Source: an uncultured bacterium (lineage in GTDB: Bacteria; Desulfobacterota; Binatia; HRBIN30; CADEER01). From it: a stretch of DNA of 64,000 bases. The translations under genes and the position numbers were made by a program. Below are positions 60,795-63,016 of the stretch, piece by piece. Location of the stretch: assembly GCA_963757755.1 (NCBI GenBank), contig CAVWTK010000007.1, positions 132,629 to 196,628 on the forward strand, written 5' to 3'. Below the pieces are notes generated by a model. That model searched no databases. It saw nothing but the letters and a program-made list of their open reading frames with translations, and was not told where the DNA came from. The first letter of the stretch is position 1, and every line of letters starts with the position of its first letter.

Positions 60795-61350
60795 TGGCCT
60801 TACGAAGAAGTGACACTCTCCCGCGACGTCGAAGTGGTGATGATCCCGCAGGGCGTCACGACGACGCTGAAGGCGGGCACGCCGGCGGTGATCACGCAGT
60901 CGCTGGGCGACAGCTACACGCTGCAGGTGCCGACCTTCGGCGGCCTCTACCGGCTCTCGGGCAAGGACGCCGACGCGATCGGCAAAGCCGCGGCGCAGCG
61001 GCGAGGACGAAGCGCCCATCGATCCCAACGCGGCGGTCGCCGAGGATCAGATCTACGCCGAGCTGCGCCAGGTCTACGACCCCGAGATTCCCGGTCAACA
61101 TCGTCGAGCTCGGGCTCGTCTACGACCTCGCGATCGAGCCGCTGCCCACCGGCGGCAGCCGCGTGGCGGTGAAGATGACGCTCACCGCGCCCGGCTGCGG
61201 CATGGGCGACATCATCGCCGCACGACGCCAAGCGGCGCATCGCCAGCCATTCCCGGCGTCGCCGAAGCCGACGTGCAGGTCGTCTTCGACCCGCCCTGGA
61301 ACCAGAGCATGATGAGCGAGGCCGCCAAGCTCGAGCTCGGCATGCTGTAG
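60795..61350 (+). pseudogene. sufT: SufT-like (DUF59-containing) Fe-S assembly protein, at least 3 frameshifts
   Basis: [39 protein letters not shown]-domain. DUF59 block [24 protein letters not shown]...[11 protein letters not shown]. Ends [13 protein letters not shown]. Confidence 0.7.
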
Positions 61351-61357
61351 TCAGTCG

Positions 61358-61846
61358 TCAGTCGCCCGGCGTGGGTTTCGGCCGCCGGAACTGCTCGTGA
61401 CAGGCCTTGCAGTGCCTGAAGACCTTGATGGATTTCTCGTCGAGGTCCTCATCGTCGCCGGACGACGCCGCCTGCGAGAGCGAGAAGGCGGACCGCTCCA
61501 GCTCACTGGCGATCTGCTCGAAGGTGCTCCAGCGCTGCCAGATCACCGGCAGGGCGCGCGACTGGGGCGCGGTGCTCCCGGCCGGGAAGAGGGCGGGGAT
61601 CTGGTGCGCGTTGGCAGCCATTTGCTGTGCGGCGCGGGCGATCATCGCGACGTCGAATCCCTCGGCGCCGATGTTGAACGCCTCGGTGATGTCCCGGGCC
61701 TCCGCGGCCATGTCCTGCATCAGCGCCTGCCGATCGCCGATCGGACCGGCCGGCGCGCGATCGCCAGCGGCGCGAAGCCCGGCGCAGCCGACGAGCAACA
61801 GGCCCGCAGCAACGATCGCTCGGGGCGAAGTCACAGAGACTCTCAT
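61358..61846 (-). CDS. class II cytochrome c (cytochrome c'/c556-like), lipoprotein signal
   Basis: ORF 61358..61888 trimmed to ATG 61846. LLLVGCAG lipobox, a helical body, and a single C-terminal CKACHEQFR heme site. Confidence 0.7.
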   Translation of the reverse strand: MRVSVTSPRAIVAAGLLLVGCAGLRAAGDRAPAGPIGDRQALMQDMAAEARDITEAFNIGAEGFDVAMIARAAQQMAANAHQIPALFPAGSTAPQSRALPVIWQRWSTFEQIASELERSAFSLSQAASSGDDEDLDEKSIKVFRHCKACHEQFRRPKPTPGD

Positions 61847-61884
61847 CGCGTTCTCCATCCCTTCCGCACGAACGCCCACCGCCG

Positions 61885-62679
61885 TCAATCCGCCGAGGTC
61901 AGTACCTTGCCGCTCGAGGTGTCGAAGTGGAGGATCCAGAACGCTTCCACATCCTCCTGGGCGATCATCGCCACGACGCCGATCTTCGGGGCGAGGAAGT
62001 AGTAGGCGGTGTCCTCGGTGTGCGCGGGGCCGACCTTGCCGGCGTACTTGAGTCGCAGGAGGACCGCGTCGTAGGTACCGGCCGGCACGGTAACCCTGTA
62101 GGTGCCGACGTAGGTGTATGCGGCCCCGAGCGATCCCGAGTAGTCCTCACGTGACGGATCGTCGAGGTAGTTGACCGCCACCTGTTGGGTCAGCGTGCGC
62201 GTCTCGCCCGGTTGCATGCCGGTCAGGAGAAACGGATTCGGCGGTGTGGTGACCACCACCACGCCCTCGCCGATGTCGGTGACCGCGGGCATCAGCAGAT
62301 CGCCCGCGTCCGTCCGGTGCAGGAACGCCGTCTGCGACGGCGACAGCCCGAAGCGCCACGCCGGTCTGCCGTCGGGACGTTGGGCCTTGGTCACCCCGAG
62401 CGCCTGTGACGCGCCGGCCTTCGGGCCTCCGGTGACGAGATAGCGCGGGCTGCGCTCCTGCAGTGGGAAGTACACGGAGGGATCGGCGATCGGCTGGCTC
62501 GGCAAGGCCCCGCCGACCACGCCGAGACCGAGCAGCGTGTCGATCCGCTGGCGATCCGCGTCCGGCAGCGGCAGCACCGGGCCGCCGGCGGCGGCCGCGA
62601 GGCGAGGGGCCATCGTCGCGAGGAGGGCGATCAGCACGAGCACGGCAGCTGTCTTGGATGTCGGGCGTATGAGCATCAT
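61885..62679 (-). CDS. secreted hypothetical protein (beta-rich, no recognised domain)
   Basis: ORF 61885..62829 trimmed to ATGATG 62674-62679. Signal peptide MMLIRPTSKTAAVLVLIALLATMAPRLAAAAG. Lies directly upstream of the cytochrome c' gene. Confidence 0.55.
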   Translation of the reverse strand: MMLIRPTSKTAAVLVLIALLATMAPRLAAAAGGPVLPLPDADRQRIDTLLGLGVVGGALPSQPIADPSVYFPLQERSPRYLVTGGPKAGASQALGVTKAQRPDGRPAWRFGLSPSQTAFLHRTDAGDLLMPAVTDIGEGVVVVTTPPNPFLLTGMQPGETRTLTQQVAVNYLDDPSREDYSGSLGAAYTYVGTYRVTVPAGTYDAVLLRLKYAGKVGPAHTEDTAYYFLAPKIGVVAMIAQEDVEAFWILHFDTSSGKVLTSAD

Positions 62680-62902
62680 GCGGACAGTGTGCTGGAACAG
62701 CAGGGATGAAGTCTCGAAGATCGCTGGAAATTTCCTGGAAAGCGTCAGCTCGGGAAAGCCGGCGAGGTGCCGCCCATCCAGATCGCGGCCCCGTCCTCGC
62801 GGGCGTGAGCCCCGATTCGGGTGTCGCAATCGGCCGGCGCCGAACTATCTATTGGTCGGTGTGACCGGTCACCCAGGCTGGGCCACCCGGACATCGGCTC
62901 GA

Positions 62903-63016
62903 TCGGTGATGACCGAGACGCTCAAGGGCAAGATCCGCGCCGAAGCCGAGGCGACCTTCCGCGACTACCAGAGCATGATGAGCGAGGCCGCCAAGCTCGA
63001 GCTCGGCATGCTGTAG
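62903..63016 (+). pseudogene. in-frame chimeric remnant: diverged copy of sufU 60461-60528 joined to perfect copy of sufT 3' end 61302-61350
   Basis: Direct nucleotide comparison gives 68 nt with 5 mismatches, then 49 nt identical including the TAG. The junction is at a shared CCA. It could encode a 35-aa peptide [35 protein letters not shown] (62909..63016). Confidence 0.8.

Follow-up and report, generated by a model that had tools for sequence, protein, structure and literature searches.

Behind the suf (iron-sulfur) operon, in the genome of an uncultured soil bacterium (G000; 7.2 Mb in 9 contigs, 70% G+C), three gene fragments are fused end to end. The window, by which we mean the whole 64,000-nucleotide stretch analysed (G000:C7:132629-196628), has sufT near its right-hand end, followed by a gene for a cytochrome c'-like lipoprotein, a gene for a secreted β-rich protein and then, in this order, the 5′ leader and first codons of terC, an interior piece of sufU and the 3′ end of sufT, after which a class 3 lipase gene begins. 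We regard this mosaic, with fair rather than high confidence, as a decaying, non-functional scar of homologous plus illegitimate recombination between lineages, followed by an internal deletion. The window carries in tandem two alternative gene sets that relatives carry between sufT and terC. The coordinates of the features are collected in Table 1.

A three-part mosaic behind sufT

The last 15 codons of sufT and their TAG stop codon occur twice as an exact direct repeat of 50 nt (repeat search; spacing 1666 nt), one base longer than the 49-nt perfect repeat described in an earlier, sequence-only reading of this DNA. Directly upstream of the second copy, 62903-62970 copies an interior segment of sufU with 63 of 68 positions identical (93%), which agrees with the five mismatches counted before. 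Neither repeat has a further copy in the 7.2-Mb genome, and because these are the sole extra copies genome-wide (blastn E = 3e-19 and 6e-22), chance is excluded.

The sufU and sufT pieces are joined in frame, leaving a 35-codon open reading frame (ORF) from the ATG at 62909 to the TAG at 63016. Both the frame and the ORF had been predicted; the public gene call gives the same 35 amino acids, and the public cluster of this peptide has one member. The joint had been placed at a shared CCA; with TAC in the source sufU allele, the state of all close relatives, the shared sequence would be ACCA. No Shine-Dalgarno sequence is visible in the sequence before ATG 62909. Translation of the ORF is therefore unsupported, also because the sufU piece is under relaxed constraint, having two replacements seen nowhere else, one of them at an invariant threonine (see below), and the ORF is probably an unexpressed pseudogene fragment.

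The remaining piece is one that the sequence-only reading had missed. About 102 nt directly upstream of the sufU piece (~62804-62905) align to the terC leaders of G000 itself (C7:202018), of a genome of the same genus (G001) and of the metagenome relative L032, and the aligned part includes the start codon of terC and ends some six codons into the gene. The 17-nt core of this leader (GAACTATCTATTGGTCG) occurs exactly twice in 7.2 Mb, at the relic and at the true terC leader. The scar thus reads as three parts: terC leader and 5′ stub, then 64 nt of sufU, then 50 nt of sufT. At the first joint (terC'/sufU') the two pieces share TCG at 62903-62905 and are out of frame; at the second (sufU'/sufT') they share (A)CCA at 62967-62970 and are in frame. 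The relic shows decay in the CCG that stands in place of the terC start codon, in the identity of its leader to any real leader (~70-75%, by eye from local alignments) and in the two unique non-synonymous changes of its sufU part.

The 17-nt motif is kept as GAAC/GTATCTATTG/TGTCG in the terC 5′ leaders of G000, G001, L032 and a further metagenome relative, L038 (window 62842-62858 and G000:C7:202018-202034), and may represent a leader, promoter or operator element of terC that has yet to be described. A yybP-ykoY Mn riboswitch often precedes terC; at E <= 1, no Rfam family, this riboswitch included, matched the leader relic or the true terC leaders. A scan of 60600-63300 for sigma-70 promoters found none, and one weak terminator-like hairpin lies within the leader relic, at 62830-62843.

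Relatives carry alternative sufT-terC intervals

G001 and the metagenome relatives L033, L032 and L038 yielded four versions of what lies behind sufT. On a clean 4.8-kb contig, L033 has the order sufS-sufU-sufT-lipase-Y, where Y is a histidine-kinase-like gene of ~1,061 aa that lies upstream of terC on the minus strand. This contig is 97% identical to 62967-64000 and continues past the sufT stop codon with the same spacer; L033 is an empty site, with the lipase directly behind sufT. In G001 the order is sufT, a 250-aa dockerin-like gene, lipase ... Y ... terC. Comparison with the sufT-lipase junction of relatives had been proposed as a check on the two-gene insert, and it finds both genes absent, L033 being empty and G001 having a different gene. 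The junction is a hot spot of gene turnover. The G001 gene (G001:C8, L007 2923-3675) encodes a secreted protein with a dockerin-like DADGDGRVSVGELV module, which has well over 100 tblastn matches in G000.

The other two relatives have a cytochrome c' gene on the minus strand in this interval. L032 reads sufT, X (a small membrane ORF), a repetitive extragenic palindromic (REP) element, cytochrome c', leader and terC on the plus strand, with cytochrome c' abutting the terC leader. L038 reads sufT, X ... cytochrome c', 4.2 kb of other sequence, Y on the minus strand, leader and terC. Since L032, L038 and the window each have cytochrome c' behind sufT, this arrangement is common to three lineages. 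In relatives, both versions of the interval are flanked by homologous suf and terC genes.

Because the terC stub precedes the suf stubs, and because relatives hold either version of the interval, the window is to be read as two alternative sufT-terC gene sets in tandem: a cytochrome c' type that ends in the terC stub, followed by a lipase type that starts with the suf stubs. The sequence-only reading had considered a two-gene insert trapped between repeats. This is incomplete for the junction, which includes the terC piece and joins two alternative versions of the whole interval.

Alleles of two suf lineages

The sufU relic matches the L033 allele at 66 of 68 positions, vs 63 of 68 for the resident sufU. 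It has the derived GAA of L033 and has neither the CTC nor the TTC state of the resident gene; these resident L and F variants are natural alleles, being present in G011 and G012. Two replacements are unique to the relic, Thr to Ile in KGKTR and Ile to Thr in EAIF. Neither occurs in any of 13 relatives, and the Thr of LKGKT is otherwise invariant. Amino acid changes result from 4/5 of the differences from the resident sufU and from 2/2 of those from L033.

Copies 1 and 2 of the 50-nt sufT piece differ neither from each other nor from the sequences of L033 and L032. Its lack of mismatches, next to the five in the sufU piece, had led the sequence-only reading to suggest gene conversion or a history of at least two steps. 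At the rate of change of the sufU relic (2/64), zero changes in 50 nt have a probability of about 0.2, and because relatives share the same 50 nt, gene conversion need not be invoked. The two-step history stands on other grounds, for the structure itself calls for an internal sufU-sufT deletion in addition to recombination or duplication.

Between G000 and L033, divergence is 7-12% from sufS to ~61028 and 1-4.5% from 61029 through the lipase and Y; the resident sufT from ~61029 onward differs from L033 by 2.5%. Such a sharp step within sufT suggests that one of the two lineages has a breakpoint of homologous recombination there. The suf genes of G000 are closer to those of G001 than the suf genes of L033 are. 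Taken together, the relic alleles and the divergence step indicate that two suf lineages met at this locus.

Recombination with a second, diverged suf locus had been put forward as the source of the relic. The diverged lineage is borne out by the 66/68 match to L033, and the second locus is not: the genome has one match to PF01592 (NifU_N, SufU/IscU family), and so no second sufU. As there is no such locus in the genome, the "second locus" would be an allele from another lineage. A DUF59 paralogue (C9:1093285-1093827) was considered as a second suf locus and rejected, having 56% protein identity and matching 61250-61313 rather than the 50-mer.

How the scar may have formed

Relatives have the sufT-terC interval as alternatives, with either cytochrome c' beside the terC leader (as in L032) or lipase ... 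Y (as in L033 and G001). In the mechanism that we favour, DNA of the two versions would have been joined in the G000 lineage. One side of the exchange would have been homologous. The other would have been illegitimate: at the TCG microhomology, the sufU interior would have been connected to terC roughly six codons after its start. The expected product is suf - [cytochrome c' + β gene] - terC leader/5′ stub + sufU 3′ part - sufT - [lipase ... Y] - terC. Its redundant partial sufU-sufT copy would then have lost ~775 bp by an internal deletion at the (A)CCA microhomology and been reduced to a 64-nt sufU piece and a 50-nt sufT piece. Such trimming would have removed most of a long direct repeat otherwise able to delete the insert, and may in this way have stabilised it. 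The mosaic with its microhomologies, the empty and the alternative arrangement of relatives, the affinities of the alleles and the decay of the relics are observed; the order of these steps and the side of the donor are what we infer. As to entry, the DNA could have come in through a single crossover of a recircularised fragment, through unequal exchange or through one-sided recombination of the transformation type, known as homology-facilitated illegitimate recombination (HFIR). The 64-nt sufU patch may be either a deletion remnant or templated filler.

A second insert nearby

Just downstream of the lipase, G000 has a 1.57-kb insert that is absent from L033. It carries a gene for a Cys-rich secreted protein, which lies about 0.7 kb downstream and is likewise absent from L033. 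The insert is flanked by a direct repeat of ~180 nt, which comprises the last ~50 nt of the lipase gene and a spacer (C7:196615-196788 and 198363-198545, 84% identical). In the distal copy the stop codon is lost (TGA to TCA) and 1 nt is deleted. Beside the first copy lies a 41-nt patch of Y coding sequence, identical to L033 at 41/41 positions and to the resident Y at 39/41.

The two cases are adjacent, within 4 kb. They have the same pattern, a repeat of the 3′ end of the upstream gene plus a short collinear distal patch, which suggests a recurrent process. More tentatively, and well short of an even chance, the stacking of alternative "islet" alleles may reflect recurrent gain of accessory genes in this probably Binatia lineage, by one-sided homologous plus microhomology-mediated illegitimate recombination and subsequent trimming of the flanks.

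A genome-wide scan for similar short direct repeats gave 79 pairs, mostly repeated domains or tandem paralogues. On C9 there is an exact 46-nt direct repeat with copies 1.6 kb apart (G000:C9:66055-66100 and 67692-67737) that resembles the 3′ half of a tRNA gene (GGAGTGGTCGCACCTGGACTCGAACC...). These copies could be att-type remnants of an integrative element.

Comparison with known recombination products

HFIR joins have 3-10 bp of microhomology at the illegitimate joint (PMC3240628, PMC6382021), and these papers summarise the process for bacteria capable of natural transformation (from de Vries & Wackernagel 2002; Prudhomme 2002; Meier & Wackernagel 2003). The joints of the scar fall in this range, with TCG between terC stub and sufU and ACCA between sufU (TAC type) and sufT. 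The scar also resembles HFIR in the short GC-rich microhomology and in the kilobase size of the insert, and on the mechanism favoured here the foreign segment would, as in HFIR, have been joined through homologous sequence on one side and through an illegitimate joint on the other.

Single crossovers of partly degraded, recircularised DNA, found in most Lac- clones of one study, left 109-950 bp duplications of the homologous locus (PMC3240628). Like such Campbell-type events, the insert lies within a direct duplication, here an exact repeat of 50 nt with the 64-nt distal patch, and at the neighbouring Cys-rich gene a repeat of ~180 nt with 84% identity. Unlike them, the scar has no plasmid backbone or replication origin. 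An L033-like relic next to a diverged resident gene also fits them less simply, and 50 nt is near the lower limit for RecA crossovers.

SPDIR, or short-patch double illegitimate recombination (described in 2016), as it is recounted in bioRxiv 10.1101/2023.11.22.568220, places a short ectopic patch between microhomologies at a breakpoint, much as the 64 nt of sufU and the 41 nt of Y are placed here. The SPDIR events of that account are stand-alone microindels, unlike a gene gain of 1.6 kb. An internal deletion accounts for the sufU patch just as well, given its collinearity with the flank.

Integrase islands at att sites in tRNA or protein genes have in common with the scar an exact 3′-end repeat that includes the stop codon and an intact target gene. 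The scar differs from them in the tiny size of its insert, in lacking an integrase and in its additional terC and sufU fragments, which one would not expect at att sites.

Quality of the assembly

The marker completeness of G000 is just 68% (CheckM). Between 54.7 and 61.25 kb, the window has 83 insertions of other than 3n bases relative to G001, nearly all of them single bases outside homopolymers and the last at 61245; by alignment to G001, each of sufB, C, D, S, U and T is broken by such insertions. In sufU they fall at 60318, 60323, 60389, 60409, 60415, 60552 and 60565. Other stretches, and the whole of 61351-64000, are free of them and have intact ORFs. This pattern is the signature of unpolished long reads, so that the suf "frameshifts" are technical: behind them is a patchily polished, error-rich long-read assembly and no pseudogenisation. 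The completeness estimate is low because patchy polishing breaks genes, and the intact ORFs of 61351-64000 imply a well-supported consensus there.

Alternative explanations

Several observations weigh against recombination between lineages as we have described it. The last 320 nt of the resident sufT are L033-like although they lie between diverged suf genes and the insert, which calls for an extra conversion or crossover, and the allele argument turns on few sites (3/68). All known leaders are at about the same distance from the leader relic, which therefore singles out no source lineage. Laboratory HFIR normally couples insertion with the replacement and deletion of recipient DNA of similar size; here nothing is missing relative to the empty site of L033, and 114 nt of flank are present twice, part of the flank having been duplicated and later trimmed. 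The assembly is error-rich, and its change from insertion-dense to clean falls near the first repeat copy. Exact searches of public metagenome and genome contigs with four junction-specific patterns (sufU'/sufT' twice, sufT/cytochrome c' and terC'/sufU') gave 0 matches, so that the structure rests on one assembly. The last two points would also suit an artefact, in which a strain mixture was threaded into one contig or polishing made spurious copies of the flank, as would the 68% completeness of a 7.2-Mb, 9-contig genome, the clustering of single-base insertions and the occurrence in other samples of related strains with an empty site. We nevertheless consider an artefact unlikely. It would join live, contiguous sequence, and an assembly false duplication would consist of contiguous, near-identical live copies, whereas the relics have a deletion, a lost start codon and unique substitutions: the terC stub has no ATG and is ~28% diverged, and the sufU piece combines two substitutions that no relative has with the joint of a 775-bp deletion, which lies at a microhomology and keeps the frame. 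In addition, the ORFs of 61351-64000 are intact, and the sufT-cytochrome c' neighbourhood is independently present in L032 and L038. Somewhat more probable than an artefact, though still a minority view, is a purely intragenomic, replication-based event without a second lineage, in which the strand being copied would have jumped to sufU at TCG, run on for 64 nt and jumped again, at ACCA, to the 3′ end of sufT. No relic source is farther than ~9 kb from the joint (upstream, sufT is at 1.7 kb and sufU at 2.4 kb; downstream, terC is at 6.5 kb), both joints have microhomology, short templated patches that arise at microhomologies and measure up to ~100 bp are on record (bioRxiv 10.1101/2023.11.22.568220), and the neighbouring insert has its own short patch, the 41 nt of Y. 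Yet the leader relic is ~72% identical to the genome's own terC leader, vs 93-97% for the sufU relic and sufU alleles, and these unequal identities mean that the pieces are not same-age copies from this genome. Moreover, the sufU relic and the Y patch are both nearer to the L033 alleles than to the resident genes, and the resident terC has no adjoining cytochrome c' copy.

Direct repeats of a gene 3′ end with its stop codon, on either side of foreign genes, are the classic look of an integrase insertion, and the exact repeat at sufT has this look. For the scar to be the remnant of a site-specific mobile element (an integrase island or transposon) at the sufT 3′ end, with the 50-nt repeats as attL and attR, is nevertheless very improbable. 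No integrase, transposase or recombinase is present in the 1.6-kb insert and the next 2 kb, where Pfam gives just the cytochrome c' and a weak DUF3108-like match within the insert and no such ORF beyond it. For a transposon or insertion sequence, 61351/62966 have no inverted repeat, there is no transposase, and a 50-nt repeat far exceeds a target-site duplication (2-14 bp). The sufU and terC pieces are out of place in an att site, and conservation explains the identity of the 50-mer. We give as little credence to the idea that the relic has been co-opted, either through the 35-aa ORF, as a working micro-protein that unites a SufU helix with a SufT tail, or through the terC-type leader, as a driver or regulator of the lipase. 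The joint is in frame and the ORF open, the conserved leader motif is kept exactly, and the relic, situated just upstream of the lipase, is oriented towards it. Against this, in-frame joining has a 1 in 3 chance, ATG 62909 has no Shine-Dalgarno sequence, most of the sufU differences are non-synonymous with one at an invariant residue, the peptide cluster is single-member, and neither an Rfam family nor a promoter consensus matches.

Genes and other features of the locus

The sequence-only reading had described the genes between the repeats as an intact lipoprotein class II cytochrome c and a secreted β-rich protein. Both ORFs are intact, and the cytochrome belongs to class II by its PF01322 match (E = 1e-26, 94.6 bits vs a cut-off of 26.5). 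The protein has the lipobox LLLVGC and, near its C-terminus, the CXXCH haem site CKACH; 33 cytochromes c' in the PDB match it, the best being R. palustris cytochrome c' 1a7v (E = 3e-12). Its stop codon is 7 nt from that of sufT. A 7-nt "tandem" TCAGTCG after the sufT stop codon was considered as a target duplication and set aside, being probably native 3′ flank of cytochrome c' (compare L032).

The β-rich protein has at least 615 homologues at 60-80% identity, all unnamed. Its AlphaFold2 model is mediocre (predicted local distance difference test, pLDDT, 64), and the Foldseek match to 4fvs (E = 5e-4, TM about 0.3) suggests a weakly YmcC/DUF3108-like fold. The gene is patchily distributed (4/18 family genomes) and missing from G001. 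In relatives its neighbours are HAD, MlaA, PqiAB/MlaD or OEP genes (lipid transport) and never suf. A conserved cassette of cytochrome c' and β gene was considered and rejected; the two adjoin just in L040 (an ENA farmland scaffold of 1491 bp), in reversed order. L040 has cytochrome c' and then β on one strand, where 61358-62679 of the window has β and then cytochrome c'. That the two genes adjoin in both L040 and the window may mean that their products are functionally linked.

Between sufU and sufT lies a palindrome like those of REP elements and miniature inverted-repeat transposable elements (MITEs). Its arms are TTCACCGCAGAG...CTCTGCGGTGAA. G000 has copies on C1, C3 and C9, G001 also has copies, and the one in L032 lies between X and cytochrome c' instead. 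The sole Rfam matches, of miRNA models to this palindrome, were dismissed as spurious.

Table 1. Features at the sufT-lipase junction and its surroundings (window positions unless a contig is given).
Feature	Position	Strand	Remarks
Resident sufU	60243..60696	+	sole PF01592 match in genome; frameshifted in assembly; G001 orthologue intact, 148 aa
Resident sufU segment matching relic	60461..60528	+	63/68 vs 62903-62970
REP/MITE-like palindrome	60701..60780	.	39-nt arms; between sufU and sufT; multi-copy in genome and G001
Resident sufT, DUF59 type	60795..61350	+	PF01883; aligned to 182-aa G001 SufT; assembly frameshifts
Direct repeat copy 1	61301..61350	+	sufT 3′ end, last 15 codons + TAG; 100% identity
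Class II cytochrome c (cytochrome c'/c556-like) lipoprotein	61358..61846	-	162 aa; PF01322
Secreted β-rich protein	61885..62679	-	264 aa; conserved hypothetical family; weak DUF3108/YmcC-like fold
terC 5′ leader relic and first ~6 codons (leader*)	62804..62905	+	motif GAACTATCTATTGGTCG at 62842-62858; terC start position 62887-62889 reads CCG
sufU interior relic	62903..62966	+	64 nt; overlaps terC relic by TCG
Chimeric ORF sufU'/sufT'	62909..63016	+	35 codons; probably not expressed; terC'/sufU' joint out of frame
Direct repeat copy 2, sufT 3′-end relic	62967..63016	+	with TAG; runs into ancestral sufT-lipase spacer, which matches L033
Class 3 lipase lipoprotein	63095..64000 (on to window-equivalent 64036)	+	313 aa; PF01764; 97% identical to L033
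Cys-rich secreted protein gene	C7: about 196886-198070	-	insert region G000:C7:196615-198545, starts at window 63987; L006 5588 onward

Implications

As an illegitimate-recombination scar, this is an ordinary kind of event in an unusually readable state, and whether it is real hinges on one error-rich assembly. In annotations, the 35-codon ORF should be entered as a pseudogene fragment, and the suf frameshifts should be put down to sequencing errors rather than gene decay. Such scars are seldom recognised in metagenome-assembled genomes. If the structure is real, it is an unusually legible natural case of small gene sets being added beside an essential operon without a mobile element, in which one sees together alternative intervals in tandem, joints at microhomologies and a duplicated flank that later eroded. 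It would then mean that a kind of illegitimate recombination measured in the laboratory leaves traces in soil bacteria. To our knowledge, natural HFIR-like transfer is so far known almost exclusively from laboratory transformation. If recurrent stacking of alternative gene sets is also true, the decaying flank relics would be datable fossils of natural HFIR-like gene transfer in soil.

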